From Candidatus Thorarchaeota archaeon SMTZ1-45 (GTDB taxonomy: Archaea; Asgardarchaeota; Thorarchaeia; Thorarchaeales; Thorarchaeaceae): a stretch of DNA of 21,868 nt. The first letter of the stretch is position 1. Each line of letters starts with the position of its first letter. The notes under the pieces are model-generated. The model was not told where the DNA came from. It searched no databases and saw nothing but the letters and a program-made list of their open reading frames with translations. The translations under genes were made by a program, and so were the position numbers. This document shows, one piece after another, positions 2,877 through 21,360 of the stretch. The DNA is taken from positions 1-21,868 of the forward strand of contig LRSL01000113.1 in assembly GCA_001563335.1 (NCBI GenBank), given 5' to 3'.

Positions 2877-2938
2877 GCCGCATACGAACAAACAATAAGA
2901 TGGCACTCTCAAGACTCGCCAGCTGGCAAGACTCAAGC
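2877..2938 (+). repeat. Promoter repeat P5: longest displaced copy of the ACAD upstream region
   Basis: gccgcatacgaacaaacaataagatggcactctcaagactcgccagctggcaagactcaagc aligns along its whole length with 8707-8769 (gcctcatacgaaggaactataagcagggtactctcccctctcgcccgctggcaagactctagc). Confidence 0.85.
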
Positions 2939-3022
2939 CACTCTCTCAATAAACAGGAAGATTCAAATTTCTGATTCCATTTTGCTAATGTCTTATTCAG
3001 ACAAGCCTGAAGTGTGAGTTCT

Positions 3023-3706
3023 ATGTTCATTGGACATTACGGTATCGCTTTCGCTCTGAAGAAATATGCACCCAAGACATCGCTTGGAATCCTGTTCATT
3101 GCTGTTCAACTGGTGGATATTGCGTTCTTTATCCTTGTTCCACTGGGAATTGAACACCTCCGAATTATCCCTGGTTTTACCGAAGCCAGTCCCTTCGACC
3201 TCTATGATTATCCAATCACTCATAGTCTTCTTGGAGCCCTTGCATGGGCTGTTGCAACTTATCTCGTATTTCGCTTCATCCTCTTGAGAAGTACAACTGA
3301 TTATACCTATAGACTAAGCACTGCACTTGTCATGAGTGTAGCAGTGTTTTCCCACTTTATCTTGGACATTGTTGTCCACACTCCTGATCTGCTGCTTGTT
3401 CCAGGACTTGACATAAGAGTGGGACTAGGACTCTGGAACAGCATTATTGCTACTGTTGCAGTTGAACTTGCCATTCTTCTTGTGGGTTGTTGGATATACC
3501 TCCATTCAACAACTCAGGGGGTAGGATTGTTAGGAAAGTATGGAATGTATGTCTTCATGATTGTGCTTGCCATCATCACCATAGTGACACCATTCACGAC
3601 TTTTCCTGATGTATTAACGGTCGTAATAACATCAGAACTATTGTATGCAGTTTTCACTCTGTTAGCATGGTTGTTGGATAGTAAGAGGTATGTTGCTGCA
3701 GATTAG
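3023..3706 (+). CDS. Membrane-bound metal-dependent hydrolase-like protein (YdjM-like)
   Basis: Motifs MFIGH, QLVD, YPITHSL and SHFILDIVVH plus several TM helices. The ATG at 3023 is preferred over the GTG at 3014. Confidence 0.75.
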   Translation: MFIGHYGIAFALKKYAPKTSLGILFIAVQLVDIAFFILVPLGIEHLRIIPGFTEASPFDLYDYPITHSLLGALAWAVATYLVFRFILLRSTTDYTYRLSTALVMSVAVFSHFILDIVVHTPDLLLVPGLDIRVGLGLWNSIIATVAVELAILLVGCWIYLHSTTQGVGLLGKYGMYVFMIVLAIITIVTPFTTFPDVLTVVITSELLYAVFTLLAWLLDSKRYVAAD

Positions 3707-3901
3707 ATATAAGAATCCCTTCCCAGTATCGCGAAAGGGGAGGTTGAGTTTCAAAGGGACTAGCACTTCGTGACAAACAGAGCCTTTCCAGACTCGCCAG
3801 ACTCCAAAAATGGTAATAGAAAATACGGAAAGAATGAAAGTGGTGATGAGTATTACTACAAAATATATAATATTAGTTTCTATTAGATTATACGTATAGG
3901 A

Positions 3902-4225
3902 ATGTATGCGGTACTAGGTTTCATTGTCTTCATTGTGCTCATTTCAGTTTCGTTGCCAATTATCTTCCCTTCTATCTTGACAGGATGCGTCGCATTCCTT
4001 ATTGCCTTGAAGCCTGAAGACCATGAGGGCTGGCTCTATTATGGTGATTTGTTGATTAAGCAGAACCAATACATTGAGGCTCTTGATGCGTATCAGACGG
4101 CGGCTAAGTTGCGCCCAGACATTACTAAGATTTGGATGAAGCTTGGAAACCTCTTTAATGAGTTGGGTCAATTTGATGAAGCGGACAAGGCATTCCGAAC
4201 AGGACTAGGCTCCAATTTTCTTTGA
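3902..4225 (+). CDS. Membrane-anchored TPR-repeat protein
   Basis: Hydrophobic N-terminus followed by two TPR units (WLYYGDLLIKQNQYIEALDAYQTAAKLRPD; WMKLGNLFNELGQFDEADKAFR). Confidence 0.8.
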   Translation: MYAVLGFIVFIVLISVSLPIIFPSILTGCVAFLIALKPEDHEGWLYYGDLLIKQNQYIEALDAYQTAAKLRPDITKIWMKLGNLFNELGQFDEADKAFRTGLGSNFL

Positions 4226-4422
4226 AGAGTTTTAAGCACAGAATGAGAACAATTGATAGGAGAATTGATCGCTCTTTCAGATTTCTATTTGATACTTTGA
4301 AAAGAAAACATCAATAGCTTCTCCTGATTGTCTAGAAGATAATACACCATTTTATCAGGGACTTAAGTAAGTTCTATTGCTTTTGTAACTTGAAGAGAGG
4401 TATGAGCTAGCTAGATGATCAT

Positions 4423-4911
4423 TTACGATTTTACAATTCTCCTCTCGAAGTCATGGACATAGTATCTTTTCCCCTTTTTTACCACACCATGACCTTCAGC
4501 CTCAAGTAATGCTTTGTGTGATTCAAGACCTCCAGGATACTTCTCATTTAAGAATCCATCAGTCTTCAAGGTCCGCCAGTAAGGTATTTTGAGCCTTTTT
4601 CCTTCTTTTGCTGCTTCTTCTACAGCATTTGCCGCGGTCGTAATGAATATGCCAGCAGTTAAGGAACAGCATCCCTTTACACCAAAGTTTTGAGCAATTC
4701 TTGCACAGATCTCTCTAATGGTAATCAGTTTCCCTCTTGGAACAGATTTCATTACTCCGATGACATGACTCGGGTTCACTAGAACAACATCGTCTCCTTC
4801 TTCAACACCCATCTTCTGAAGCGCTTTGTAACAGGGAAAGCTCTTCTCGAGTTTCAAGACCTTTGGATATCCATCTTTGTCTTCCATCTTCTCTCGCCAA
4901 GTCTTCTTCAT
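4423..4911 (-). CDS. MGMT-family / alkyltransferase-like DNA-binding protein
   Basis: VPRGKLIT...EI and IPYWRTLK, with PYWR in place of the catalytic PCHR; C-terminal LLEAEG. Confidence 0.75.
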   Translation of the reverse strand: MKKTWREKMEDKDGYPKVLKLEKSFPCYKALQKMGVEEGDDVVLVNPSHVIGVMKSVPRGKLITIREICARIAQNFGVKGCCSLTAGIFITTAANAVEEAAKEGKRLKIPYWRTLKTDGFLNEKYPGGLESHKALLEAEGHGVVKKGKRYYVHDFERRIVKS

Positions 4912-5027
4912 AAGACCATTCTCCTAACAATGAACTCAATACTTCAGTTACGTGATTTATTTAATAATCGGTTGATACTGAGGTTCTTCACAATCAAATA
5001 ATAACCGGAGATTCTGTATATACCCAG

Positions 5028-5060
5028 CTCATACGAGGTAACAATAAGCAAGGGGCTTTC
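5028..5060 (+). repeat. Promoter repeat P4 (diverged)
   Basis: ctcatacgaggtaacaataagcaaggggctttc versus native ctcatacgaaggaactataagcagggtactctc. Confidence 0.75.
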
Positions 5061-5074
5061 GACCGGGTCATCAT

Positions 5075-5776
5075 CTAGGGTGAAGATCCATATGTATTTT
5101 CGAGAATCCTTTCAACATGACGATAACTCTTTGAAGTCATTGTTGGAATTAGAATTAAACCTAGAAGCAAGACAACAAAAGCAAGTAACATGGTAGTTAC
5201 CCAGAGTTCCATGGTAAGGAACTCGTCATAGACGAAGAAGAACAACTCAGAAAATGAAACTCCCCAGAATCCGAAAAGCCCTAATGCAAATCCACGGATT
5301 GGATTCACCCGGCCTAGCATGAGTACCTCTCTCGCAAGAACAACCTTTCCTTTCTCTCTCTTTCCAAGAATGTTGCCTATAGCACTCTCTGAGAGGAGAA
5401 TCGCTTTGAATAGAAGATTAGAGGTAGAGAGAAAGACGCCTTTATCAGTGCTGCGTGACCAGAGTTGGATTCGTCTGCTGGCACCGAGTTCATCCCTGAC
5501 TTCCTCAAAAAGGGTTAAAATCTCTGCATTTGTAACTGGATTTCGAAATAGTATCAACTTCAGACCAAAGACAATGAACTGTACAGCTGAACCAACTAGT
5601 AATGTAGTTATAGTCCACTGGAGTATATTAAACTCAATATTGGCAAAGAGTCTAATTCCTATCAGTCCAAGAGTCCAGACTAAGCTGCACATAACTAGCC
5701 CCTCTTGAAATGCCATCGTGAAAAGAAACACCCCTGACTGATTCTCAATAATGTCTGGATCGCCTAGCATACTCAA
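5075..5776 (-). CDS. Hypothetical membrane protein, possibly a degenerate M48/M56 peptidase-like fold
   Basis: TM-soluble-TM architecture. AILLSE...VVLAREVLML resembles the context of VLAHExxH but lacks the His ligands. Confidence 0.6.
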   Translation of the reverse strand: MSMLGDPDIIENQSGVFLFTMAFQEGLVMCSLVWTLGLIGIRLFANIEFNILQWTITTLLVGSAVQFIVFGLKLILFRNPVTNAEILTLFEEVRDELGASRRIQLWSRSTDKGVFLSTSNLLFKAILLSESAIGNILGKREKGKVVLAREVLMLGRVNPIRGFALGLFGFWGVSFSELFFFVYDEFLTMELWVTTMLLAFVVLLLGLILIPTMTSKSYRHVERILENTYGSSP

Positions 5777-5906
5777 GCTCCCACTCAGAGTGTTTCTTGA
5801 AGCGGTATGCTATAAGGATAACTGCGAATGGATGCTTTCAAGTTTTTAGTAGGAGAAAGTCATGCAGTTACAATTCGAGTGTAGATCGCATAGAAGTGTT
5901 ATAAAA

Positions 5907-5950
5907 GCCTCAGTCGTAGGAACTATAAGCAGGGCACTCTCCCCACTCAC
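5907..5950 (+). repeat. Promoter repeat P3
   Basis: gcctcagtcgtaggaactataagcagggcactctccccactcac versus 8707-8750 gcctcatacgaaggaactataagcagggtactctcccctctcgc. Confidence 0.95.
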
Positions 5951-5981
5951 TTCAAGAGGAGAAAACAGGTGAATTGAATCT

Positions 5982-6716
5982 TCACCTAATGAATGGCGGA
6001 GGAACTAATCTGAAGTAATAGGATAGTAGTACAAGGAAGACCCAGAAGATGAGTGTAGACACAAGGTATCTAAGAGGCCGCCCACGCGCCAAGGCGCTGA
6101 AATGAAGTGATTCAGGCAACTGCAGTCGAATTGGTAGAATGAAGGGAGTGCTTTGCTGGTACTGCACAAATGAATCTCCAAACTCTTTACTCAACCAGTA
6201 ATCCTCAAGGTCAGCAACCAGAATTAATAGAAATAGAACTGAACACACAGACACCAGATCACCAGGTCTTGTGGCTGGAAGAAGCAGACGTGAGAAACTG
6301 GTCTTAAGTGGAAAAGCTAGAAGGTACAACATGAGTAGGATTCCCAAGTGTTGAGGATGCCGTACCCACCCATAGGGGCCGTATGTGACTAGACCTTCTT
6401 TATGTATACGTGCCCTAGCAAGAGTGACTAGCCCATAACAGAGAAGGAATAGACCAAAGCAGAACATAAGAACTTGCGAGAACCGGAATGCAACTGCTAT
6501 TCCGGTTTCAAGTCCTCCAGGAGAAGAAGGATCGAACATATACACATAGCCAGTCCAGCTATTTGAGTAGGGAACTATGTAGCTGAGGAGCTCCCACGAG
6601 AAATACCAGCTAGCTAGTATCCAGACCATTGGTGTCAGTATGCCAGCGACAATTGGCAGATAGAGGCCAACAGATATAGCGGCAGCGGTTATGTTGCTAA
6701 CGACCCTTTTTAACAC
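5982..6716 (-). CDS. Isoprenylcysteine carboxyl methyltransferase (Ste14/ICMT/PEMT)-family membrane protein
   Basis: Signature LVTYGPYGWVRHPQHLG, then LED..LSKEFG..F..YQ..TPFILP; multiple TM helices. Confidence 0.85.
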   Translation of the reverse strand: MLKRVVSNITAAAISVGLYLPIVAGILTPMVWILASWYFSWELLSYIVPYSNSWTGYVYMFDPSSPGGLETGIAVAFRFSQVLMFCFGLFLLCYGLVTLARARIHKEGLVTYGPYGWVRHPQHLGILLMLYLLAFPLKTSFSRLLLPATRPGDLVSVCSVLFLLILVADLEDYWLSKEFGDSFVQYQQSTPFILPIRLQLPESLHFSALARGRPLRYLVSTLIFWVFLVLLSYYFRLVPPPFIR

Positions 6717-6834
6717 TAGCTGAGTCCTCCCTCACCGAAAAGATGCTACAGTGCATATGCTATATTTCGACCTCCAATGTCAAGAAGATTTTGTTCTCGG
6801 CACGCTAGACAGACTCTAAGGGTATATCCGCCCA

Positions 6835-6865
6835 ATACGAGGGAACTATAAGCAGGGCACTCTCC
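6835..6865 (+). repeat. Promoter repeat P2
   Basis: atacgagggaactataagcagggcactctcc; the 20-bp core is identical to P1 and P3. Confidence 0.95.
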
Positions 6866-6907
6866 AAACTTTCTCTATAGGGATACAGAGCAGAGGTTAT
6901 CTATTAT

Positions 6908-7525
6908 TTACGGTTGTTTGACCATAACCCAATGGAGGATGTTGGCTATGGGCAATGTGAATGAGTCAATAACATCGAAGCCGTAATGTTTGTAAATTTG
7001 TACAAGACCTTCATCCTGAGTTTCAAGGACGCAGGGTTTGTTTTGTGAACTACACATTGAGAGTACAGGTCGGACAAGCTTGCTTGCAAGACCTTTCCCT
7101 TGATAATCTGGATGAACTGCCAGTGATCCTAAATACCAATGGGGCTCAGAAATACACTCATCTCTCTTACTGACTACAAAACTCTCTACTTCTCGCATTC
7201 TTCTTAGAGTCTTGGAACCAGCGGCTCGATACAGTCCTATCCCTCCCGTTCTAATTGCTCTCAACCAACTGAACTCATTGTACTCCGATTGTGTAAGGAT
7301 AACAACGCCCTCAATGTTTTCAGATGTAGCAAGGATTTTTCCATAGAGGAAGCCATTCTTAACACGGTAATTAAAGAACTTTGGAAGGAATCTCAACCTG
7401 CTTTCTGGTTCCGGTAAGAAATAACACAATAGATGATCATCAAAAAAAGCCTGAACTAAAGTTTCAGTGACCTTCTTTACGTCCCTTTTTGTTACATGGT
7501 AGGGTTCAGGACTCGTGTTTTGCAT
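6908..7525 (-). CDS. GNAT-family N-acetyltransferase
   Basis: WYLGSLAVHPDYQGKGLASKLV (acetyl-CoA motif A), then LET...YKHYGF. Confidence 0.9.
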   Translation of the reverse strand: MQNTSPEPYHVTKRDVKKVTETLVQAFFDDHLLCYFLPEPESRLRFLPKFFNYRVKNGFLYGKILATSENIEGVVILTQSEYNEFSWLRAIRTGGIGLYRAAGSKTLRRMREVESFVVSKRDECISEPHWYLGSLAVHPDYQGKGLASKLVRPVLSMCSSQNKPCVLETQDEGLVQIYKHYGFDVIDSFTLPIANILHWVMVKQP

Positions 7526-7622
7526 TGGTAGTCAGTTTTTATTAAAAGACCTTTCTGATATACCTTAGGATGGCTTGAGAATTAAGATTCATGAATATTA
7601 CTCTTCTTCAACGCAGGACAAA

Positions 7623-7653
7623 CCTTATGCGAAGGAACTATAAGCAGGGCACT
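7623..7653 (+). repeat. Promoter repeat P1
   Basis: ccttatgcgaaggaactataagcagggcact; ends 6 bp before the stop codon of the convergent epimerase gene. Confidence 0.95.
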
Positions 7654-7659
7654 TGTCTT

Positions 7660-8598
7660 TCATGGTCCGGATTGGTTTAGGACTGTGCCTTCATGTAGAT
7701 TCTCGATCGTGGCTTTGAGACCCTCTTTATAGGAGGGGTACTCCAGCTCCCAGTCAAGCTCTCTTTTGGCCTTCTCGTTAGTCACCACACAGTCTATCTG
7801 CATAATGCTTAGAAGGAAACCACCAAGGACGATTCGAGCGATGAACATTGGAATAGTTCGTGGCTTTGGCAGTCCCATGCACTCCGCCATGTGCTCTGTG
7901 AATTCTCGCGTGGTACACGGAGTATCGTCAGCTATGATGAATGATTCACTCACAGGCTGTTTCTCTACTGCAAGAACAAAGGCCTGAGCACAGTCATCGA
8001 CATGAACCCTCGGGATGTGGTTGTCACCTCTCCCGAAGACGCCGGAGCGCCCATTCTTCATCATCTCGTACATCTTGAGGAACTGGCCACCCGGTCCATA
8101 GATCTGACCCGGGAGCATTATGATGAGTGGTTGTCCCTCCTTCTTTGCCCTAGCAATAAGCACGTCAGCCTCTTCGCCAGCCTTCGTGAGACCCGTCCTG
8201 ACAAGTGGCCAAGACTCGTCAGCTACCTGTCCCTGCTTAGTGCTGTAGGCAGTGCCAAGAGTCAGTATGGTCGGGCAGTCAAGTTTCTTCCCGATAGTGA
8301 GAGCGGTCGACACGAACTTGGTCGTCCTCTGCTTAATCTGAGCGAACTTGCTCTTTGATATTCTTCCGAACTCGAGAGGCATGGCTACAGAAATCACACA
8401 GTCCTGGGAACTTATGTTGTCTATGAACGCGTCCGGCTCCATAAGGTCGCCGACTATTATTTCGATGCTCCTGTTACGAAAATATTCCGCCGCGTCAGTT
8501 CGACGGGTGAGTATTGTGACCTCATGACCATGCGACGAAAGTCTGGAAACTATCCTTGAACCCAGAAATCCAGTACCACCAAGCACAAGTACTCTCAG
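7660..8598 (-). CDS. NAD-dependent epimerase/dehydratase (extended/atypical SDR)
   Basis: (M)RVLVLGGTGFLG Rossmann motif, PGQIYGPG and VHVDDCAQA. The start is probably CTG at 8598 (GGTGA SD 6 nt upstream, in-frame stop just before) rather than GTG at 8586. Confidence 0.9.
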   Translation of the reverse strand: MRVLVLGGTGFLGSRIVSRLSSHGHEVTILTRRTDAAEYFRNRSIEIIVGDLMEPDAFIDNISSQDCVISVAMPLEFGRISKSKFAQIKQRTTKFVSTALTIGKKLDCPTILTLGTAYSTKQGQVADESWPLVRTGLTKAGEEADVLIARAKKEGQPLIIMLPGQIYGPGGQFLKMYEMMKNGRSGVFGRGDNHIPRVHVDDCAQAFVLAVEKQPVSESFIIADDTPCTTREFTEHMAECMGLPKPRTIPMFIARIVLGGFLLSIMQIDCVVTNEKAKRELDWELEYPSYKEGLKATIENLHEGTVLNQSGP

Positions 8599-8706
8599 AA
8601 TGAGTCACCGATTGGCAGTCATAAATAAGAGATATTTAACTTGTTCATTGCAGTATTTTTAAAACGTCACAAAGAAGGTTTCTCATTTTGCGAGGAGGGA
8701 TAAGAC

Positions 8707-8769
8707 GCCTCATACGAAGGAACTATAAGCAGGGTACTCTCCCCTCTCGCCCGCTGGCAAGACTCTAGC
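8707..8769 (+). promoter_or_regulatory. Putative BRE/TATA promoter of the acyl-CoA dehydrogenase gene (source of repeats P1-P5)
   Basis: Purine-rich CGAAGGAA (BRE-like) directly before CTATAAGC (TATA-like, ~8723-8730), ~60 bp upstream of ATG 8786. GAGGT SD at 8776-8780. Confidence 0.7.
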
Positions 8770-8785
8770 AATCAAGAGGTAGTTT

Positions 8786-10030
8786 ATGATGCATTTTGAA
8801 GAGTCGGATGAAGAAAAGATGTTCCGCGAGGCAGTGCGTGAGTTCGCTCAGAAATACGTCGCGCCTGCGTGGAAAGAGTATGATGAACACACTCACGAGG
8901 TTCCGCGAGACCTCATCAAGAAGATGGCAGACCAGATGTTGTGGGCACCCACTGTGTCAGAGGAGTATGGTGGAGCCAATCTCTCTTGGGTGATGTCATG
9001 CATCGCCGCAGAGGAGCTTGCGAAGGCAGACCTCTCCATTGCACTCCCAGTCATGTACCTTGTTGAGGCTTCATGGGCGTTTATCTTTGACAAGTATGGC
9101 ACTCCCGAGGCGAAGGCTGAGATCCTCCCGCGTGTCACAAAGGGAGACCTGTTCTTTGGTATCGCAACCACTGAACCAACTGGTGGCTCTGACCTCGTCA
9201 ACTCGACCAAGACCACGATCAAGCCAAAGGGTGACAAGTTTGTCATCAATGGTGAGAAGGTGTATATCTCCGGCGTGGCTGAGTCCGAGAAGTACGGTGG
9301 TGTATACTGGACACTGGCTAAGTCGGACCCGAAGGGCGACCACAAGGCATTCGATGGGTTCATTCTCCCGCTGAACATGGGTGATGGACTGCATCCTGGA
9401 ATCACAACCACGCTGTTTGAGGACATGGGGCGGATGGGTGTGTCCTGTGGTGGATTCAACATCGAGAATGTGGAGATTCCGAAGCACTACATCATCGGCG
9501 AGCGTGGGAGAGGATTTTATTATGCCATGATGGGTTTCAGTGCAGCCCGCGTGTTAATCGCAGCCACTTGCCTTGGTGCCGCACAAGCATGTTTTGACAT
9601 TGGTGTTGACTATGTTAAACAACGCAAGCAGTTCGGACGACCACTCGCGGCTTTTGAAGGCATAATGTTTGAAGGAGTCGATTCATGGATGGCAATTCAA
9701 GCTGACAGACATCTAACATATCATGCAGCCTGGATCATGGATGAAGTCTATAGTAGAAACAACAAAAACTACGACCATCTCGATATTGCCAGGTACACCG
9801 CTGCAGCCAAATACAAAGCACCACACGATGCTCTTGACATCATTACTCGTGCCATGACTTGGCACGGTGCCTTTGGATACTCCAAGGAATGTCCCCTCGA
9901 AGCTTCTTATAGGGGTGTTCGTTCATACACTGTTGGAGCTGAAGGGGGGTCTCATATACAGAAAATCGTCATGGGTCGAGAAATTTTCGGACCCGAATGT
10001 CTTCCATATCGTCAGGAAAAGCAGATGTAA
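8786..10030 (+). CDS. Acyl-CoA dehydrogenase (anchor gene of the array)
   Basis: Family motifs: SEEYGG, FGIATTEPTGGSD, INGEKVYIS, IGERGRGF, R-x-QFGRPL, HGAFGYSKE and catalytic-region GAEGGSHIQK; 414 aa. Confidence 0.96.
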   Translation: MMHFEESDEEKMFREAVREFAQKYVAPAWKEYDEHTHEVPRDLIKKMADQMLWAPTVSEEYGGANLSWVMSCIAAEELAKADLSIALPVMYLVEASWAFIFDKYGTPEAKAEILPRVTKGDLFFGIATTEPTGGSDLVNSTKTTIKPKGDKFVINGEKVYISGVAESEKYGGVYWTLAKSDPKGDHKAFDGFILPLNMGDGLHPGITTTLFEDMGRMGVSCGGFNIENVEIPKHYIIGERGRGFYYAMMGFSAARVLIAATCLGAAQACFDIGVDYVKQRKQFGRPLAAFEGIMFEGVDSWMAIQADRHLTYHAAWIMDEVYSRNNKNYDHLDIARYTAAAKYKAPHDALDIITRAMTWHGAFGYSKECPLEASYRGVRSYTVGAEGGSHIQKIVMGREIFGPECLPYRQEKQM

Positions 10031-10044
10031 TCAAAATCAATGAA

Positions 10045-10064
10045 AAGGGAGCCTATGCTCCCTT
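10045..10064 (+). terminator. Hairpin after the ACAD stop codon
   Basis: aagggagc-ctat-gctccctt, a perfect 8-bp stem followed by a T-rich run. Confidence 0.7.
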
Positions 10065-10079
10065 CTTTCTATTTATATC

Positions 10080-10382: not shown

Positions 10383-10414
10383 GTATTATTCCTGTATTAG
10401 GACACATTTCATCC

Positions 10415-13682: not shown

Positions 13683-13691
13683 AGAACTTAT

Positions 13692-14060: not shown

Positions 14061-14136
14061 TATGATTGAAAACTTGGATTTCCCCTTCATGTTATCAACA
14101 CTTGCAAGCGGCAACTACAGGTGCATAAATGCTAAT

Positions 14137-14237
14137 ATTGTCATGGCACGCGAGATATTCGGACCCGACTATCTACCGTACAGGCAAGAAAAACAGATGT
14201 AGATTCAAACTTTCAAACGAGAGAGGAGCTTCCTTTC
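14137..14237 (+). repeat. ACAD tail copy T4 plus imperfect hairpin
   Basis: IVMAREIFGPDYLPYRQEKQM* (stop at 14202); gagagg-agctt-cctttc. Confidence 0.95.
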
Positions 14238-14268
14238 GAAGAAAAGTGGAGTCTGGACTGTCTACTAG

Positions 14269-14374
14269 AAGGTGGTAATGGCACGGGAGTTACTGGGAGC
14301 AGAAAACCTCCCCTACCGCCAAGAGAAACAGATGTAGATTCAAGCTTCAAATCGAGAGAGGGTTCTCCTCTCTC
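14269..14374 (+). repeat. ACAD tail copy T5 plus hairpin (divergent allele)
   Basis: KVVMARELLGAENLPYRQEKQM* (stop at 14337); gagagagg-gttct-cctctctc (14354-14374). Confidence 0.93.
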
Positions 14375-14384
14375 CTCACTATTT

Positions 14385-14894
14385 CTATCTCTGAAAGAAC
14401 TTCCGTGTGATCCTCTTTTCCTCTGAGAATTTCATTTCAGCCTCATCAAGGACAGAACGATAGCCTTCCTGTTCTTCACCTCTCATTTTGGCGGCTTTCA
14501 TTTGATCCAGTTTGTCTTCCCAGAATTCCACAATCTCAGGATGATTTTCAAAATAGTCTTCCAATCTATCATGTATCTGCCTAAGAAAGCCCTGGGGGTC
14601 ATACGCAATTCTCGACAAGATAGTTGTGTACCAAAGAAATGGATAAGTTTCAATAGACTGCAAAACCATATTCAGTGGTTCGACACTCATGTCGATCTTG
14701 ATTCCTCTTCGGTACTCCTCTATGAATTGATGTGTTTCAATGCTCTCTGAAATCACCCCGAGATCAACGTCAGAATCAGGTCTAATATCACCAGTCACTA
14801 GACTTCCAGCAATTTCAATACCAACTATTGATGGGTCTTTCTTGAGTTCCTCGACAACTTCTTCTGCAATTTTTTCCTGTAGGGTTTCCATCAT
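14385..14894 (-). CDS. Nucleotidyltransferase domain protein (Pol-beta/MNT/KNTase-like)
   Basis: IAGSLVTGDIRPDSDVDLGVI contains the GS...DxD motif; third Asp in GIKIDMS. Confidence 0.85.
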   Translation of the reverse strand: MMETLQEKIAEEVVEELKKDPSIVGIEIAGSLVTGDIRPDSDVDLGVISESIETHQFIEEYRRGIKIDMSVEPLNMVLQSIETYPFLWYTTILSRIAYDPQGFLRQIHDRLEDYFENHPEIVEFWEDKLDQMKAAKMRGEEQEGYRSVLDEAEMKFSEEKRITRKFFQR

Positions 14895-14918
14895 CTACAC
14901 AACTTTGGCTCATTCAAC

Positions 14919-15941
14919 TCATTCAACAGTATCGTTGAATAGGACTATCCTGTAACGTGCCTTGTTCTCCTTTACCTTCCGAATCGCCTCGTTTACCTTC
15001 GTCATAGGCATCAACTCCACTTTAGGCATGATGTTGTACTCCTGTGCGAACGAGAACATCTCCCGCATTGTGGTCCGATTGCCGAGGAAAGAACCAGTGA
15101 TCGACAGTTGACGTGCCACGAGTTCAGTCGAATTGAACTCCACGTCTGGAAAGCCGATAAGGACCAGCCTGCCCTTTTTCTTCAAGATATTCAATAGTGC
15201 CTCCCAGTTGATTTTGTTTGAGGCGGTGCACAGAAGCAGGTCAAAACTAAGCATAGCCTCTCGCAAGCTTGTCTGGTCGTCCGAAGAGAGGAAGTGGTCT
15301 GCACCAAAGGAAAGCGCCTCCTGTTTCTTCTCCGGAGAGGAGGAAATGGCTGTGACATCGTAGTCGAGAGCCCGTGCGAACTGTAATGCAAGGTGACCCA
15401 GACCTCCCACACCGATGATACCAATTTTCCGCGCGGGTTGCGTTGCGTACGAACGAAGCGGCGAGTAGACCGTGACCCCGGCACACGTTAACACAGCGGC
15501 CACCTCAGAAGGCATGTCGTCAGGCAGCTGATAGACAAAGCGGCTATCCGCGATGACGGAGGACGAGAAGCCACCATAGGGGACCCAGGTTCCTGATGGA
15601 ACAATGTCCAAGCAAAGCTGGTCTTCTCCCTGCAAACACCACTCACATTGCATACAAGACCGACCCTGCCAGCCGATGGCAACTCGATCCCCTTCCTTCA
15701 AACCGGATGCCGCATGGCCCACTTCCGACACATGTCCAACGATTTCATGACCTGGGACGAAGGGAAAGGTGGTTATATCGTAGTAATTGTCGATGGCATG
15801 GATGTCGCTATGGCACACACCGCAGTGCGTGACAGAAACCCTGACATCATGCTCCCCCAGTTTGGGTGGCTCGTAGGTGATTGGCTCGAGCGGTTGCCCT
15901 ACCGCCTTCGCTGCGTATCCCAAGACTTTTGAAGAAGACAT
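14919..15941 (-). CDS. ahr: Zn-dependent NAD(P)-dependent alcohol dehydrogenase / aldehyde reductase (CAD family, Ahr/YjgB-like)
   Basis: CGVCHSD, PGHEIVG, structural Zn site CMQCEWC...C, GVGGLGHLALQFA and the C-terminal ARYRIVL. Confidence 0.9.
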   Translation of the reverse strand: MSSSKVLGYAAKAVGQPLEPITYEPPKLGEHDVRVSVTHCGVCHSDIHAIDNYYDITTFPFVPGHEIVGHVSEVGHAASGLKEGDRVAIGWQGRSCMQCEWCLQGEDQLCLDIVPSGTWVPYGGFSSSVIADSRFVYQLPDDMPSEVAAVLTCAGVTVYSPLRSYATQPARKIGIIGVGGLGHLALQFARALDYDVTAISSSPEKKQEALSFGADHFLSSDDQTSLREAMLSFDLLLCTASNKINWEALLNILKKKGRLVLIGFPDVEFNSTELVARQLSITGSFLGNRTTMREMFSFAQEYNIMPKVELMPMTKVNEAIRKVKENKARYRIVLFNDTVE

Positions 15942-16043
15942 TCGCAGAACCTCTCCTGTTCAGTAGCGCGCATCCAATGGAACAGCTGAGCATGCTGTCG
16001 GACGTTGATTGAACAGAGAATATTAGTATTCCGTTAAACAGAG

Positions 16044-16149
16044 AAGATTGTCATGGCACGAGAGATCTTCGGACCCGACCTTCTGCCGTACAGACAAGAG
16101 AAACAGATGCAGGTTCAAGTTTCAAACCGAGAGAGGTTCTTCCTCTCTC
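16044..16149 (+). repeat. ACAD tail copy T6 plus hairpin (stop mutated TAG>CAG)
   Basis: KIVMAREIFGPDLLPYRQEKQMQ; gagagagg-ttctt-cctctctc (16129-16149). Confidence 0.95.
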
Positions 16150-16243
16150 AATCCCTTTTCTTTATCGACTCAATATTTTGTTCGAACAATTGATAAGATA
16201 ATATATTATCGGTGGAAACCGCGATACCTGCAATAGCTTTGAA

Positions 16244-17821
16244 TTGGGAGGAGAAAGGTTGAGAGAGAAGCAATTCAGAGTAGTCTTCCTATCTATCGCT
16301 TTGTGTGCATTACTCACAATACCTCAGATGGCGACAACAGGTAGGCAACAATCAACGAATGTCTTCAACTTGGGTCAAGACTCAGGCATACCGTATGAGG
16401 GAGCTGAAGTGGTTATTCAAGAGGGGAACTCCCGGACAAAATACAAATTCGTGGCAAGCTCATCATTCCAAGGAATTCCTGATTTCCGCATGGGAGCCTG
16501 TTTCTATAGTGTCTACACATGGCGCGATCTCCCATATCTGAACACGTGGATGCCAAACATCATTGAATTAGGCATATGGCGCTTCGATACATGTGTGGAC
16601 GAGAATGAACCACCAATTTATTGGGAATACAACAATGAACAAGAATTTCCTGAGGAATACGACCAATTTATCGATGGGTTGAATGAAAATGGATTGACCG
16701 TTAATTACATGCTGCACTTCTGGGACAAGACTGGCCATGCACTTGGGGAGGAACTGTCGACACCACGCTTCCAGTCTGAGGAGCAAATCCAAGATTTCTT
16801 GAACTACACACGCTTTGTGGTCAGTCACTTTGAAGGCCGTGTTCAATACTACACGATATGGAGTGAGCCAGATGCTTGTCCTGGAATCAAGTGCATTGAG
16901 GTGGAGGACTACATCAATCTCGTAAATCGAACTGTGCCAGTCATTCACGAGGAGGACCCTAAGGCAAAGGTGTCCATAGGCCCTAATGTTCTCTTCTTTG
17001 CGCAGGACTACCTCTCAGCTATCATTGAATCTGACATCATGACCATGGTAGACGTGATTCAATGGCATGGCATCTATAACGTGTTGCCTAACGATCAGTT
17101 TTATGGTGATTATTACTACCAATACCCTGCGATTGTTGAAGGAATCAGACAAACAGCTGCTGCCCATGGTTTCGACGGAGAGTGTTGGGCCACCGAAATT
17201 GGTTATAGTGCAGAGGAAAATGCTCCTGATCAGCCCTGGGGAGTAGTGGAAACCAGCAAACAAGCAGCCAAATATTCTTCACGCTCACTTGTCAAGCACC
17301 TAGGAATGGACATGGGCGTGGCTATGGGGAACTTACGATATGACAACCTTGAGATAGACCCTTGGTCGCAGCGTGCACTAGGCAACCTTTACAAAGTTTT
17401 GGCAGGGACTAACCCAGTCAGTCTTGCTGTTGAATTTGAGGATGAACCCACAAACGCCGTAACTAACTCATTTGCGTTGCCTGATGGCGACACGTTATTC
17501 GCACTATGGACTGATAGCGAAACAATTGAAAATGACCTAGGTGTAAGGACAACCCTTACATTTCCTGACCTGCCTGCTCAAAAAGTAACAGCGATTGATG
17601 TACTCAATGGCTTCGAGCAGGACCTCATCATCGGAGAAGTAAATGGGGATCTAGTCATCCGCAACATCTTCGTTATGGACTATCCAATCATCTTACTTTT
17701 CGATAGCGATGCTCCTTTTACTCTTGAACCAGATCTGAGTCCGTTTATGGTGGTGGGATTTGGTTCAGTGGGTGTTGTTACGATCTTGATTGTCATTCTT
17801 TTCATTAAAAAGAAAGAATGA
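16244..17821 (+). CDS. Secreted, C-terminally anchored clan GH-A glycoside hydrolase-like protein (GH5/GH39-like)
   Basis: Signal peptide, YYTIWSEPD (acid/base motif, cf. WNEPD), IQWHG, CWATEIG (nucleophile motif), C-terminal TM and KKKE. Confidence 0.75.
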   Translation: MGGERLREKQFRVVFLSIALCALLTIPQMATTGRQQSTNVFNLGQDSGIPYEGAEVVIQEGNSRTKYKFVASSSFQGIPDFRMGACFYSVYTWRDLPYLNTWMPNIIELGIWRFDTCVDENEPPIYWEYNNEQEFPEEYDQFIDGLNENGLTVNYMLHFWDKTGHALGEELSTPRFQSEEQIQDFLNYTRFVVSHFEGRVQYYTIWSEPDACPGIKCIEVEDYINLVNRTVPVIHEEDPKAKVSIGPNVLFFAQDYLSAIIESDIMTMVDVIQWHGIYNVLPNDQFYGDYYYQYPAIVEGIRQTAAAHGFDGECWATEIGYSAEENAPDQPWGVVETSKQAAKYSSRSLVKHLGMDMGVAMGNLRYDNLEIDPWSQRALGNLYKVLAGTNPVSLAVEFEDEPTNAVTNSFALPDGDTLFALWTDSETIENDLGVRTTLTFPDLPAQKVTAIDVLNGFEQDLIIGEVNGDLVIRNIFVMDYPIILLFDSDAPFTLEPDLSPFMVVGFGSVGVVTILIVILFIKKKE

Positions 17822-17883
17822 ATCATACTCGCACTAGTTCAGATTCAATGATGGATCGTAACTGCTAGATTAGCTGTACCGAG

Positions 17884-17990
17884 AAGATCGTCATGGCGCG
17901 TGAGATATTCGAATCTGAGTATCTGCCGTACAAGCAAGAAAAACAGATGTAGTTTCGAATTCAGTAGAGAGAGGTTCTTCCTCTCTCTAC
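17884..17990 (+). repeat. ACAD tail copy T7 plus hairpin
   Basis: KIVMAREIFESEYLPYKQEKQM* (stop at 17952); perfect 11-bp stem gtagagagagg-ttctt-cctctctctac (17964-17990). Confidence 0.95.
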
Positions 17991-18076
17991 GTTTCTTTTC
18001 AATACAATGGACAACGTGCAAATCTTATTAGAATCCACTTTGCATTCAAATCGGTTTAATACTGGAGGAAGTCTAA

Positions 18077-20264
18077 TTGAAGAGTAGGACTGCTACGATT
18101 CGCAACATCGTAGTAGTTGTCGCTGCGATCACTCTCATTTCAAGTTCCATTCCTTTTGATAGTTATTCAAATCCAACTGCGAGAAACGATATGATGAACA
18201 GTTCAGAGAAACCAATCAATGTCTACCTTGCGAATGTTCTACATGGACCCATCATCATAACCTCAAACAATGACTTCTCTGCACAGGGATTCCTAGGAAG
18301 TGGCTCTGAATCGAGTCCATATCTCATTGAGAACTACAGCATCAACACGACAGGCACCTGTATTTCTATATCGAACACTGATGCGCATTTCATAGTCCGG
18401 AAATGTCTACTCACGGGAGGGGATGATGGAGATGGGATACTCATGGACAATGTGATGAATGGGGAGATAAGTAACAACAGCATATCTCAAAAGGACAGAC
18501 CCCTACATCTTCTCCTTTCGTCTAATAATATGATAGTTAATAACACGATCTCAGAAAACCGCTTACAAGTGACCCTCCACTCCTCTACGAATAACGAGGT
18601 CCTTGAGAACAATATTTCTGACAACTCAGGAGGTCTCTACCTCTTATCGTCTCCAAACAACCTTGTCGCTAATAACAGCATCCTAGCAGGTTTTGGGACT
18701 GGTATAATTCTTGAAAACTCCCCTGAATCAACACTTACAAAAAACATCATCTCAAACAACCAAGGAGGAATTTACCTTCATAGCTCATCAAGAAGCATCA
18801 TTACAAATAATACATTATCAGAAAATATCGGATATGGAATCATTCTTGATGACTCATCGGAAGTCAGACTTTCATCAAACATCTTACTAAACAATGGATT
18901 TGGTATTCTGGGAAATAGCGTTGAGGAATGGAAGCACGATATTTCTACTGACAATCTTGTGAATGGAAAGCCCATTGGTTACTTCTGGGATTTGCATGGG
19001 GAACGCATAGACGAGAATCCATATTATCTGATGATCTTCGCAAACTGTACTAACATCACAGTAGAGAATATCGTCTTCGATAGAAGTAGCATTACCTTAG
19101 GATTTTCATCAAACTGCACACTGAATAATAACACCTCCTTAGAGAGTCAAGGATTTGGAATCTCCTTTTACTACTCCGTGGACAATAAAGTGACCAACAA
19201 TAGATGCAATAGTCTTTCTTTGAGGTATTCATCAAACAACGACTTGTTTTACAACACAATCTCCGGGACTAGTTATGTTGGCGTAAATCTCAGAGTATCC
19301 TCGTACAACAGAATTGAAGGAAACACTATTTCGGGATTTGAAGATGGTCTGTGGCTCTATGAGGAATCTACCCATAACCATGTGGTGAACAACACAATAT
19401 CTGAATCCCTTATGTATGGAGCAAATCTCCTTTACTGGTCCAATAATAATACGTTCTCAGACAACCATATCGACGGCGTGCATCTTCACGAAGCACATAG
19501 CAATGATTTCGTGAACAACACCTTTTCAGGTGGAGATATCGCGGGAGTAGACATGTTCGGTTCTTCAAATATCAAGATATTGAACAACAATATTTCTGGG
19601 AATAGTATCGGTATGTCACTCAAGTGGTGTCTTTCTAAATTCCGGAACACACGACAACCTACTGTGTCTCAATGTCTTTGGGAACAATGGAGATGCCGAT
19701 GCACGAGATAACGGTAATGGAAATCAGTGGAACAGCACAGGAATTGGCAACTATTGGTCAGACTATCCCGGAACTGGAGCCTACTACATTCCGGGAGATG
19801 CTGGCGCCATCGATTACCATCCCCACGGATACACTGACACAGAACCACCTATAATCAGCAATCCAGCAGATATTGAGTACATTGAGGGGACCTTGGGTAA
19901 TAGCATCACATGGAGTCTAACTGAAGATCATCCCTCTCACTATGTGATATATCGGAATGGTATTCTGGTTGATTCAGGAGATTGGGATAGTGATTTGATT
20001 AACACAAGCATCGATGGCCTGAATCCAGGAGCCTACTACTTCACAATTGTAGTCTTTGATATCTACAACAATTGGAGCAGTGATGAGGTCATTGTCACTG
20101 TGTTAGCAGCGGAACCTACTTCAATTCCAACAGTAACTACGACATCAACCATTCCCTCTGAGAATGATATTCCTCATCCTATTCTGGTTGTGATATTAAT
20201 CGCAGAAATTGGAGTCGTAATGATACTGCTGGTCTTACTCTCTAAACAACAACGTGGACTGTGA
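18077..20264 (+). pseudogene. Frameshifted NosD-like parallel beta-helix surface protein with Ig-like domain and TM anchor
   Basis: Frame 1 (from 18077) has Asn-rich beta-helix turns up to GNSIGMSL (~19620). A shifted frame continues SSGVFLNSGTHDNLLCLNVFGNN...GIGNYWSDY...DTEPPIISNPADIEYIEGTLGNSITW and runs straight into ORF 19893-20264. Confidence 0.85.
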
Positions 20265-20276
20265 AAAAGAGAATAG

Positions 20277-20379
20277 ATTGTCATGGCTCGTGAGATCTTC
20301 GGACCTGACTATCTGCTGTACAGGCAAGAGAAGCAGATGTAGTTTCAAACTTCAATCGAGAGAGGTTCGCCCCTCTCTC
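20277..20379 (+). repeat. ACAD tail copy T8 plus hairpin
   Basis: IVMAREIFGPDYLLYRQEKQM* (stop at 20342); gagagagg-ttcgcc-cctctctc (20358-20379). Confidence 0.95.
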
Positions 20380-20445
20380 CTCCACTCATTTTTCATTCAT
20401 TGATCCGCATAGGGTGTCCATCATTCGACCTGAGTCAAAGCTAGC

Positions 20446-21192
20446 TTAGAATAGAACAACCAATCGAATCGTACCCCATACTAAATGCCACCATATGTAG
20501 TAGATAATCCGAAACCAGTACATTGAGAGAAAGTCATACTTCTTGAGGATGGACAGCTGGACGTAGCTAAAAAGAAACAGACGTATACCCTCGATCGCTG
20601 AAATCCATATTGGATGTCCAGTACCACTGAAATCAAGCTGATATAGAGGCTCCAAGAGAGAGATGATGACAATGATAACGAGAAAGATTCGGTCGAAGTC
20701 CCTACCTTTGAATACTGAGGTGAGAAGGGCCAGTAAGAGAGTAAGAGGGAGGAGATGAAAGAGAATCTCCACAACAAAGCCCATTGTTGGATAGAAGAGA
20801 AGGGATTTCGGTAGGAGAACATTGGTGTCCTCAGGATAGGGAAAAACTAGATCTACCAAGATTGCACCAAGTGCGAATGGAACTGTCGGGAGTGAGATGA
20901 GGAGCAGGCTTTTCAGATTCTCTCGTTTGTAGATATCAACCCATTCCTGTGAGAGTAGAATGGACACCAACCCTAGTCCAAGGACGATGATGATTGAGAT
21001 CATGAACACAGGATTGATACTCCCGAAAAAGATTTCGAATCTAGGAGTTCCAATCAAATAGAGTGCTACCGTGAAGAAAAGTATAATGAGTGAAATCGTG
21101 ACAAAGACACCTATCTGCAATTTTTCGGTTGACAATAGTTCCTTCAGTGATGATAGTCTATGCATCCGCTCATCTATGGGATCCATTTTCAT
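20446..21192 (-). CDS. Hypothetical multi-pass membrane protein (weakly CPBP/CAAX-protease-like)
   Basis: About 7 TM segments; VVEILFHLLPL and YYIWWHLVWG motifs. Confidence 0.7.
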   Translation of the reverse strand: MKMDPIDERMHRLSSLKELLSTEKLQIGVFVTISLIILFFTVALYLIGTPRFEIFFGSINPVFMISIIIVLGLGLVSILLSQEWVDIYKRENLKSLLLISLPTVPFALGAILVDLVFPYPEDTNVLLPKSLLFYPTMGFVVEILFHLLPLTLLLALLTSVFKGRDFDRIFLVIIVIISLLEPLYQLDFSGTGHPIWISAIEGIRLFLFSYVQLSILKKYDFLSMYWFRIIYYIWWHLVWGTIRLVVLF

Positions 21193-21260
21193 GCATGATG
21201 AACAGCTTCACTCCCGCAAAAGTATTGTGCCGTGGTTCCATAAAGATGAGGTGCGTAATG

Positions 21261-21360
21261 GTCATGGCACGCGAGATCTTCGGTCCAGACTATCTGCTGT
21301 ACAGGCAAGAGAAACAGATGTAGTCTCATTTTGTATTTCGAGGGAGATTCATGCTCCCTC
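21261..21360 (+). repeat. ACAD tail copy T9 plus hairpin
   Basis: VMAREIFGPDYLLYRQEKQM* (stop at 21323); gagggag-attcatg-ctccctc (21340-21360). Confidence 0.95.

Follow-up and report, generated by a model that had tools for sequence, protein, structure and literature searches.

The DNA examined here is the whole of contig LRSL01000113.1 from Candidatus Thorarchaeota archaeon SMTZ1-45 (GenBank assembly GCA_001563335.1), a stretch of 21,868 nt that we call the window and, as a complete contig, C113. It belongs to a metagenome-assembled genome (MAG) of 119 contigs that is 87.7% complete. At mid-contig, it carries a gene for an acyl-CoA dehydrogenase (ACAD), and on both sides of this gene, accessory genes are separated by direct copies of one of its two ends, namely, copies of its promoter upstream and copies of its 3' end, here called tails, downstream. 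Our results place the window as the ACAD-proximal part of a hypervariable cassette island that is typical of a Thorarchaeota genus, and comparisons of tail sequences indicate that recombination at a core of 18 nt within the tail is how cassettes enter the island, leave it, and pass from genome to genome. The best reading of how this happens, to which we give roughly even odds (a probability of about 0.5), is a copy-and-paste of tail-flanked cassettes initiated by an endonuclease, the candidate being a LAGLIDADG protein encoded next to ACAD in related genomes.

An ACAD-anchored cassette island

ACAD orthologs with 81-91% amino acid identity occur in many Thorarchaeota MAGs. At the DNA level, 12 loci of relatives align to the gene. 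In 11 of them, interspecies homology sets in at the promoter core (8702-8712), the twelfth (L018) being one whose alignment begins at its own contig end, and it stops at the tail (10023-10126) in the eight loci with an alignment that reaches the ACAD 3' end. Outside this interval, the sequence is unrelated between species.

The tail is a copy of ~115 nt in which the 21 terminal codons of ACAD and their stop are followed by ~15 nt of spacer, a hairpin of 8 bp (GAGAGAGG/CCTCTCTC, with a GGGAGC/GCTCCC variant), and a T-rich run. A profile built from the window copies (nhmmer) recovered ten tails on C113, the native one and nine displaced ones, all on the forward strand and with E values from 8e-15 to 2e-35. 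Likewise, six promoter copies were recovered with nhmmer, the native one and five displaced ones, again all on the forward strand, and a second profile, built from the native ACAD 5' regions of 36 relatives, found the same copies. This agrees with a sequence-only reading of the window, which had listed nine displaced tails at 10951-21360, here delimited as 10909-21372, and displaced promoters at 2877, 5028, 5907, 6835, and 7623 in addition to the native one. Its observation that promoter copies lie only upstream and tails only downstream, all in ACAD orientation, is true within the window; the restriction of tails to the downstream side is established for C113 only.

Across the assembly, the tail profile gave 35 matches, 34 of which were firm and fell on five contigs (C113, 10; C12, 8; C116, 5; C65, 3; C61, 8), with uniform orientation within each contig, while one weak match lay on C89. 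With 24 further tails on C12, C116, C65, and C61, the array is far longer than the window. On C61, the clear tails end at ~16 kb and 30 kb of tail-poor sequence follows, which places one island end on that contig. The repeats are hence not scattered in the manner of a REP- or MITE-like family but belong to one island, and the promoter repeat is confined to C113, with six firm matches there and one chance-level match on C56 (E = 0.84). A self-comparison of the genome revealed no second locus with local short direct repeats of the ACAD-array kind, the other matches being paralogs, a tRNA present in duplicate, and repeats internal to surface-protein genes.

The shape of the whole island is less simple than the window suggests. 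Beyond the far end of the array, at 23.6-25.2 kb of C61 (23620-25190), lie two genes orthologous to ones found 2-8 kb 5' of ACAD, their counterparts being located at L046 671-2262 and L057 6686-8280, and in a further locus (L102, 14373-14965), these genes likewise come after a tail array. A second array, a rearrangement, and a circular replicon are possible topologies. A beta-helix repeat gene is cut off both where C113 ends on the right and where C65 begins on the left, and adjacency of these two contigs is plausible. The right end of C61 overlaps C32, and the island contigs share too little synteny with L046 and L057 for the contig order to be settled.

Tails were found in 24 of the 26 genomes of the genus, with 0-24 BLAST-level matches each and the largest number in the present genome. 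At least two tails were present in 49 of 77 loci from genome collections, where a single reversed copy was seen (L103), and in 53 of the 80 metagenome loci that were fetched, none of which had mixed orientation. Some species have only the native tail (e.g., L039, L045, and L059). A closed Thorarchaeota chromosome carries five tails and no ACAD ortholog (best match 33% identical), which indicates that arrays can outlive or leave ACAD. The orphan array of this chromosome (G031; L105 10132-15211, ~3,060,132-3,065,211) holds its five tails together with a C-terminal remnant of the endonuclease described below, and no synteny was found between the flanks of the present island and this array region.

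Taking a cassette as the interval between two tails, we obtained 182 cassettes with a median length of 1382 nt (quartiles 819 and 1923 nt). Downstream of ACAD, a cassette contains one or two unrelated accessory genes, and cargo genes lie on both strands. No relative in the data set was found for 119 of the 182, and the other 63 fall into 24 shared types that recur across genomes in other positions, with other neighbours, and in different orders. The 392 open reading frames (ORFs) of the tail arrays form 285 protein clusters. The ends of homology blocks coincide with tails in 240 of 1111 cases, against ~123 expected from coverage. The alcohol dehydrogenase (ADH) cassette of the window (14932-16078), for example, is 80% identical in DNA to a cassette elsewhere in the array of another genome (G001). 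Cargo is therefore not fixed among relatives, and the proposal that both ends of ACAD are recurrent insertion points is borne out genus-wide by this variability in cassette content and order.

The commonest cargo consists of NosD/beta-helix surface proteins (37 members in 23 loci). The arrays also contain genes for beta-lactamase-fold proteins, regulators of the TetR and PadR types, a glutamine synthetase, a nitroreductase, enzymes acting on glycans, and numerous proteins without assignment. NosD/beta-helix genes lie at 2-631, 18077-19711, and 21403-21867 of the window, at 326-2017 and 10939-14604 of C12, and at 2-1078 of C65. The island contigs break in repeats, and the internal 66-69-nt repeats of these genes coincide with island contig ends.

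Cassette exchange at an 18-nt core

Conservation was analysed over 240 tail copies, 212 of them displaced and 28 native. It follows a three-base period, with 1.41, 1.50, and 0.86 bits at codon positions 1, 2, and 3 of the displaced copies and 1.54, 1.79, and 0.60 bits in the native ones. Among the displaced copies, 85 retain an open frame and stop, 11 have internal stops, 15 have lost the stop, and 101 contain indels. The codon periodicity, combined with these stops and indels, identifies the tails as decaying relics of once-coding DNA.

Compared with the window's own ACAD end, eight of its nine displaced tails show 64-76% identity (the degenerate first copy, 45%). Identities are 77-89% when the best-matching ACAD end from a different species is used instead, and they reach 95% with a displaced tail elsewhere. 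Judged by these identities, the native ACAD tail is the outlier among the window tails, and the displaced ones are evidently not copies of the present end. Mean tail identity is 0.715 within genomes versus 0.745 between them; tails within a genome are thus no closer than tails between genomes, which points to independent imports and argues against local duplication. The mean pairwise identities of native and displaced tails all lie between 0.72 and 0.75 and do not discriminate between the classes. A nearest-neighbour count of tails (44/48) is biased by sample sizes and was set aside as evidence.

Within the tail, the core CAAGAGAAACAGATGTAG spans 18 nt and corresponds to the last five ACAD codons plus the stop. 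Third codon positions carry 0.9-1.6 bits in the last six codons versus 0.05-1.1 bits (mostly <0.9) upstream, and the core is constrained at the nucleotide level. The displaced tails are dominated by CAAGAGAAACAGATGTAG and variants that differ from it by one or two letters, while the 28 native ends comprise 23 versions. The native core of the window, CAGGAAAAGCAGATGTAA, differs from the family consensus at four positions, all of which are synonymous or stop-codon sites.

The core is also where cassettes exchange. We compared 76 homologous cassette pairs from different arrays for crossover points and found that the cargo moves together with the right part of the tail upstream of it and the left part of the tail downstream of it, whereas the middle is at background identity. 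The clearest pair is also the most recent one, with 98.7% identity between the cassettes and neighbours that differ on either side. In the upstream tails of this pair, no relationship is seen until column ~71, and the sequences are all but identical once the core is reached; in the downstream tails, similarity extends to column ~65 and is then lost. Two mosaic tails in the window (13664-13799 and 21239-21372) fit exchange at the core as well. Because the crossovers map to the core, the mobile unit consists of the core and hairpin, the cargo, and the coding left part of the next tail. The sequence-only reading had each event rebuild a functional gene while displacing the old end outward; this does not fit the window in any simple way, given that the native tail is an outlier and that displaced tails are nearer to the ACAD ends of other species. 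The crossovers also assign to each cassette a left side made of core and hairpin and a right side made of coding sequence from the tail that follows.

The left boundary of the tails is sharp, at column ~24. The evidence for the hairpin as a structure is modest. Counted by hand, pairing is kept in 88.6% of cells, and one clear compensatory switch, from A-U to G-C, occurs in 8 of 43 sequences, but a control in which the pairing was slid by +2 is likewise high (80.9%), owing to a GA/CT repeat. RNAalifold returned no consensus structure for the 43 tails, with the loop region misaligned.

Two displaced tails in the window (14118-14387) stand back to back, 11 nt apart and free of cargo, and tandem tails whose starts lie 38-167 nt apart also occur in L040, L077, L081, L117, L130, L150, L172, and L187. 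Were a cassette simply excised between its two tails, a single tail should remain and not the two of a tandem pair.

A LAGLIDADG endonuclease linked to the native tail

The recurrent mobility-type cassette gene in relatives encodes a free-standing LAGLIDADG protein of 560-1080 amino acids. It scores over the Pfam cut-off for LAGLIDADG_3 (PF14528), has weak helix-turn-helix signals at its N terminus, and contains two LAGLIDADG motifs, with G347, S351, and D352 and G471, D474, G475, D476, and G477 invariant in 17 aligned sequences. Its AlphaFold model (pLDDT 85.3) finds as best Foldseek matches in the PDB PI-SceI, I-SceI, I-DmoI, I-WcaI, E-DreI, and PI-PfuI, with target TM-scores of at most 0.65, and lower matches are LAGLIDADG relatives (maturase, WhiA). 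Protein-atlas look-alikes agree with the LAGLIDADG identity, and the closest homologs are unnamed Thorarchaeota proteins. The gene is often followed by one for a HerA/FtsK-like ATPase, as at L180 4797-7373, L039 14536-17118, and L046 13568-15790.

The position of the endonuclease gene is regular. An intact copy directly follows the native ACAD end in seven of seven distinct loci (L029, L039, L046, L133/L155, L163, L180, and L193), so that a mobility gene is present in these related loci, although the window has none. The cassette, with or without the ATPase gene, is bounded by two tails in L180, L163, L193, L029, and L133/L155, and the duplicated C-terminal segment of ACAD flanks it in L180, L163, L193, L029, and L133. 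The endonuclease profile matched 14 times in array loci; 13 of these matches run antisense to the tails and finish, at their 3' end, less than ~100 nt from the upstream tail. C-terminal remnants of the gene adjoin tails in L035, L062, L065, L079, L135, and the closed genome by profile search, and in L036, L044, L047, L060, and L129 by tblastn only. Further, the seven tail-linked genes form one clade relative to 12 paralogs from elsewhere (SH-aLRT 97 in a quick tree).

The cores on the two sides of the endonuclease gene differ. The tail that abuts it has a variant core in seven of seven loci, while the tail on its far side opens with the exact consensus CAAGAGAAACAGATG in all five loci where such a tail was detected. 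This is the pattern expected if the linked target copy is protected from cutting. The 18-nt core also matches the target size of LAGLIDADG endonucleases.

The promoter-side arrays

The two-sided symmetry around ACAD is real and recurrent. Displaced promoters number 22, in 11 of the 37 loci with any promoter match, and all 22 lie upstream of the native promoter in direct orientation. The promoter core CCTCATACGAAGGAACTATAAGCA resembles an archaeal BRE/TATA element, ~60 nt upstream of a Shine-Dalgarno-like AGAGGTAG. The epimerase, GNAT, ICMT-like, and peptidase-like genes of the window recur 5' of ACAD in other species, in other combinations and positions, and the arrays of promoter copies equal those of tails in modularity. 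Some displaced promoters precede cargo on the forward strand in, for example, L034, L040, L051, L063, and L066 and, judging by this placement, could drive that cargo; in the window, most of them face the 3' ends of genes on the reverse strand.

Membrane enzymes recur in the upstream arrays, and their likenesses cover all three activities of CAAX processing, with Rce1-like proteins, look-alikes of the M48/M56 peptidases, and a weakly ICMT-like protein (window 5075-6716; L032 1132-2049; L040 8974-9903; L031 8079-9731). This CAAX-like cargo may represent a functional theme rather than a random assortment. A recurrent upstream gene of ~550 amino acids (cluster 11) was considered as a second nuclease and rejected, as its product resembles an M48/M56 membrane peptidase.

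A proposed copy-and-paste mechanism

Under the reading that we favour, the tail-linked LAGLIDADG lineage would cut the tail core. The break would then be repaired by copying a donor segment flanked by two tails, from another genome or from the same array, and such repair would insert a cassette and add a tail. Single-strand annealing of neighbouring tails would remove cassettes. Homing endonuclease genes usually decay and are lost. A similar fate of the endonuclease gene here would leave arrays, such as that of the window, that lack it, and would explain why intact copies stand only beside ACAD and remnants further out. A broader formulation, which we hold tentatively and as less probable, is that of an integrase-free analogue of integrons, in which the endonuclease lineage drives an additive copy-and-paste of cargo between copies of a gene end, with the promoter serving as a further site and the array becoming two-sided as a result.

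Several observations weigh against endonuclease-initiated copying. First, neither the endonuclease gene nor a remnant was found on the five array contigs of the present genome, whose two family members lie on C24 and C109, free of tails. The family was found in only 12 of the 26 genomes of the genus, and there was no match in several array-rich genomes, such as G004, G013, and G018 (13 BLAST-level tails each). Second, direct-repeat flanks were found at none of 13 paralog copies away from ACAD, which indicates that flanking by repeats is not a general habit of the family, and in L039, no second tail was found within 10 kb beyond the endonuclease-ATPase pair. Third, classical homing splits its target, whereas here, the target is duplicated whole and the core is conserved in the displaced copies; the constant geometry of gene and tail, moreover, would pass to any ordinary cassette. 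Fourth, the pair could be defence cargo, given that the ATPase resembles a defence-type HerA, with E values from 1e-16 to 1e-18 for the PADLOC HerA and mad8 models. The endonuclease has no match among the PADLOC models, and that library yielded no pairing of LAGLIDADG with HerA. Finally, the proposed mechanism does not account for the promoter-side arrays. Neither a scan of 10 additional proteins from upstream arrays nor the analysis of cluster 11, the family that recurs there, turned up a nuclease, and the similarity between promoter and tail core is not significant (score 17; null 95th percentile 19).

Alternative explanations

A site-specific recombinase of integron- or Xer/dif-like type that has escaped recognition could instead act at the core, excising circles with a single tail and reinserting them at any tail, in which case the LAGLIDADG cassette would be a passenger or an independent parasite of the same site. 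We regard this as unlikely, although many features of the tails would suit such an enzyme: their strictly direct orientation, their sharp left boundary, the conserved core with crossovers at it, the conserved hairpin with some compensatory change, the integron-like shuffling of cassettes, and the persistence of arrays in genomes that lack the endonuclease family. A hybrid joint between two tails of the window, seen in three public sequencing runs (see below), could also be the junction of such a circle. Set against this, the tyrosine (PF00589) and serine (PF00239) recombinase families had no match in the present genome (G000), while both matched control genomes, and incompleteness leaves room for a missed Xer-type tyrosine recombinase. 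In the genus, PF00589 is sporadic, being matched in 8 of 26 genomes and in neither G000 nor 17 of the 25 others; G001 and G013, for example, which are near-complete and carry arrays, gave no match. At six fetched congener loci with tyrosine recombinase genes, neither a tail nor a promoter repeat was found nearby. Pfam scans detected no recombinase or transposase among 76 array and flank proteins, nor any such family in the 26 ORFs of the window, as the sequence-only reading had stated. The core was found in no stretch of the viral contigs scanned, no recurrent protein family without explanation was found in the arrays besides the endonuclease and the ATPase, and cargo lies in both orientations, unlike that of integron cassettes. 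As a side observation, the 18 of 26 genus genomes in which PF00589 was not found include one that is 97% complete, and no Xer-type enzyme is evident in most of the genus.

Alternatively, no dedicated enzyme need be involved. The tails could be portable patches of homology that are shuffled by ordinary homologous recombination after DNA uptake or cell contact, the first duplication having arisen once, for example, by the insertion of one endonuclease or integrative element. The position of the crossovers in the longest identical stretch, the mean identities within and between genomes, which fit continual import, and the lack of a recombinase match in this genome all accord with this idea. We nevertheless consider it improbable, since it leaves unexplained how new cargo acquires tails, why the tails have a sharp left boundary, why 18 nt are conserved beyond coding needs, and why one endonuclease clade is tied to the native tail. 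Repeats of ~65-115 nt at ~75% identity are, besides, generally a poor substrate for recombination.

The arrays could also be relics of serial insertions of integrase-bearing elements, with duplication of an att site at the gene 3' end and subsequent loss of the integrases. Att sites by which a target gene is rebuilt typically show as direct repeats of the gene's 3' end, and tyrosine recombinases do occur sporadically, in 8 of the 26 congeners. We judge this very unlikely, however, as the cassettes are mostly single genes (median 1.4 kb), no integrase occurs among the scanned array ORFs, no tail lies beside the six congener recombinase loci, and no free tail-bearing element was found among the viral contigs.

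An artefact, whether a chimeric assembly of strain variants joined at the repeats or a REP/MITE-like family dispersed through the genome, is hardly credible: although the source is a MAG of many contigs, island contigs break in repeats, and unitig-like contigs from public runs branch at tails, the tails are too diverged to be mis-joined (45-76% identical to the native one), the repeats are limited to one island, contigs from four runs of four studies bridge the native and several displaced tails, and the same architecture is present in dozens of MAGs from other assemblies, on contigs of 669 kb, and on one closed chromosome. Specifically, the four runs contain 39-95% of the sampled array words, and their contigs lead from the native tail into the first cassette and across several displaced tails, although the best-matching run may be the source sample, which makes the bridging contigs only partly independent. 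The chimera that the sequence-only reading had named as a possible objection is, accordingly, not indicated.

The public runs differ from the assembly at two places. Contigs of three runs have 20 extra letters after window position 10363, inside a small ORF (10080-10382, reverse strand), which may reflect an indel in the MAG or a strain difference. Contigs of three runs also contain a hybrid tail joint (20345>14350, +7 letters) that is missing from the assembly and combines the coding part of the tail at 20258-20388 with the hairpin part of the tail at 14249-14387; it could be a further tail copy, an alternative cassette order, or the circle junction mentioned above. Two other tail-to-tail joints (11606>20277 and 14177>20318), with sides of only 29 and 23 letters, and loose contig ends at 11581/11613, 20280-20340, and 21262/21325 were rejected as evidence of excision, because k-mers shared between tails would yield them.

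Relation to known systems

The closest precedent for the 3' side comes from the mORFs of fungal mitochondria, LAGLIDADG or GIY-YIG ORFs that, in the account consulted, are inserted at gene 3' ends with duplication of the C terminus (PMC3630166). The targets named in that account are atp6, atp9, cox2, and nad3 in Glomus and atp6 in Allomyces, and the inserts bring a foreign C-terminal segment with mostly synonymous differences, while the native segment is displaced downstream (PMC3630166). As far as that account goes, the resemblance to the arrangement of our relatives' loci is close, in that a free-standing endonuclease gene directly follows a conserved gene, a second C-terminal segment lies beyond it, the two segments differ mainly at synonymous sites, the insert is foreign, and the endonuclease genes decay. 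An endonuclease directly after the host gene is present in the seven related loci and not in the window or on this genome's other array contigs, and a mostly synonymous C-terminal duplicate beyond the insert is represented by the 212 displaced copies, L039 being an exception. The mORFs as described there are single organelle insertions, often fused in frame and without other genes, whereas here, an archaeal chromosome carries arrays of up to at least 34 cassettes. Unlike those mORFs, the endonuclease gene is antisense, unfused, and often accompanied by the HerA-like ATPase gene, and there is a second array on the promoter side. The sequence-only reading, which recognised no described system in the symmetric arrangement, is thus too strong for the 3' side; multi-cassette cargo arrays and promoter-side arrays were not found in the literature searched.

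Integrons have been reported in Archaea too (PMC9668308). The present arrays resemble integrons in being long series of small, mostly single-gene cassettes, each bounded by a repeated hairpin-bearing site, in their diverse and shuffled cargo (the 119 unique cassettes and 24 shared types above), and in having the newest position beside a fixed anchor. They differ in that there is no IntI, attI, or attC architecture, the site is a copy of a host gene end, cargo lies in both orientations, and two arrays flank one gene. Specifically, the repeat is a direct copy of 21 ACAD codons with an 8-bp hairpin, and cargo is carried on both strands, which is not the organization of attC.

Intronless homing of free-standing homing endonuclease genes is reported in phages (PMC10448857). 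In phage cases such as those of T4, as here, an endonuclease gene sits beside its presumed target in a conserved gene and the linked target copy is a variant; flanking DNA is co-converted, so that neighbouring genes travel along. Intronless homing in phages is not known to duplicate the target or to build arrays, unlike the system seen here.

Mating-type switching in yeast is driven by HO, a LAGLIDADG enzyme, and as in our proposal, a break at a short site is repaired from a donor cassette with homology on both sides; HO switching is a replacement at one locus from two silent donors and is not known to involve array growth or horizontal cargo. Direct gene-end repeats that separate insertions, with older ends lying outward, are also seen where integrative elements accrete at tRNA or protein gene 3' ends and in the C-terminal displacement arrays of Rhs/CdiA toxins; accretion needs integrases and Rhs/CdiA swap fused toxin tips, whereas here, there is no integrase and the cargo is unfused to ACAD. 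Aloposons, described in Heimdallarchaeum as having tRNA-gene integration and giant tandem genes (PMC8813620), share Asgard hosts and site-specific insertion with the present system and are described without gene-end repeat arrays.

A literature search on Asgard mobile elements, integrase cassettes, free-standing LAGLIDADG islands, and Thorarchaeota homing endonucleases found no such arrays. Duplication of a gene 3' end by an endonuclease ORF is already known from mitochondria. What appears new is its extension, in the chromosome of an archaeon, to long arrays of unrelated cargo, along with the partner ATPase and the arrays on the promoter side.

Features of the window

The coordinates of ACAD, its end copies, and the cargo are collected in Table 1. 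One of the two ORFs in the first cassette after ACAD (10080-10768) has a sub-threshold rubredoxin-like match.

Table 1. ACAD, promoter copies, tail copies, and cargo genes of the window (positions in nt)
Feature	Positions	Strand	Details
Anchor gene			
ACAD (acyl-CoA dehydrogenase), 414 aa	8786-10030	+	Pfam Acyl-CoA_dh_N, _M, _1
Promoter copies			
Native ACAD promoter and 5' leader	8671-8798	+	TATA-like core CCTCATACGAAGGAACTATAAGCA from ~8707; Shine-Dalgarno-like AGAGGTAG directly before ATG
Displaced promoter 1, longest, extends into leader	2843-2969	+	nhmmer E=1.9e-15; native-promoter profile positions 28-116
Displaced promoter 2	4994-5107	+	nhmmer E=4e-14; profile positions 46-88
Displaced promoter 3	5869-5993	+	nhmmer E=6e-21; profile positions 41-96
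Displaced promoter 4	6795-6917	+	nhmmer E=2e-23; profile positions 44-91
Displaced promoter 5	7584-7711	+	nhmmer E=3e-20; profile positions 39-85
Tail copies			
Native tail	9944-10078	+	Last 21 ACAD codons, TAA, spacer, hairpin GGGAGC/GCTCCC, T-rich run
Displaced tail 1, degenerate, no clear hairpin	10909-11028	+	nhmmer E=8e-15; 45% identity to native
Displaced tail 2	11528-11661	+	nhmmer E=5e-30
Displaced tail 3, mosaic (native-type coding left, consensus-type core and hairpin)	13664-13799	+	nhmmer E=3e-28; alignment
Displaced tail 4	14118-14237	+	nhmmer E=2e-32
Displaced tail 5	14249-14387	+	nhmmer E=9e-31
Displaced tail 6, stop codon changed to CAG	16029-16162	+	nhmmer E=2e-35
Displaced tail 7	17866-17999	+	nhmmer E=5e-32
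Displaced tail 8, 95% identical to a displaced tail of another genome	20258-20388	+	nhmmer E=1e-33
Displaced tail 9, mosaic (consensus-type coding part, native-type GGGAG/CTCCC hairpin)	21239-21372	+	nhmmer E=3e-31; alignment
Upstream cargo region	2970-8670		
YdjM-like membrane protein	3014-3706	+	Pfam
TPR protein	3902-4225	+	Pfam
Protein with MGMT DNA-binding-like domain	4423-4911	-	Pfam
M48/M56-like membrane peptidase homolog, truncated	5075-5776	-	Protein-atlas look-alikes of family
Weak ICMT-like protein	5982-6716	-	Pfam
GNAT acetyltransferase	6908-7525	-	Pfam
NAD-dependent epimerase/SDR	7660-8586	-	Pfam
Downstream cargo region	10079-21238		
Small ORF, 100 aa, no family	10080-10382	-	First cassette after ACAD
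Small ORF, 117 aa, no family	10415-10768	-	First cassette after ACAD
ORF without assignment, 151 aa	11087-11542	+	
ORF without assignment, 664 aa	11688-13682	+	
Nucleotidyltransferase	14385-14894	-	Pfam; cassette with Zn-alcohol dehydrogenase
Zn-alcohol dehydrogenase (ADH)	14919-15941	-	Pfam
Weak GH1-like protein, 525 aa	16244-17821	+	Pfam
NosD/beta-helix surface protein	18077-19711	+	Pfam; cassette with ORF 19893-20264
ORF without assignment	19893-20264	+	
ORF without assignment, 248 aa	20446-21192	-	

Implications for Thorarchaeota

Asgard archaea have large, bacteria-enriched sets of accessory genes, and how they acquire genes is poorly understood. In this context, the ACAD locus is a concrete hotspot, widespread in one genus, where dozens of unrelated accessory genes accumulate and pass from species to species through an 18-nt site, with no integrase in evidence. 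Their products include beta-helix proteins of the cell surface, esterases, regulators, and enzymes of sugar and redox chemistry. Whatever the enzyme, the arrays are usable as a strain-level marker of gene flow in uncultured Thorarchaeota. The endonuclease hypothesis can be tested at the bench with one protein and one short DNA site. If the LAGLIDADG enzyme is the engine, homing endonucleases would build integron-like arrays, which would widen the roles of these selfish genes and would provide a programmable target site that builds arrays naturally. If the integrase-free platform proves true, it would constitute a new class of gene capture and a route of horizontal gene flow in the archaea closest to eukaryotes.

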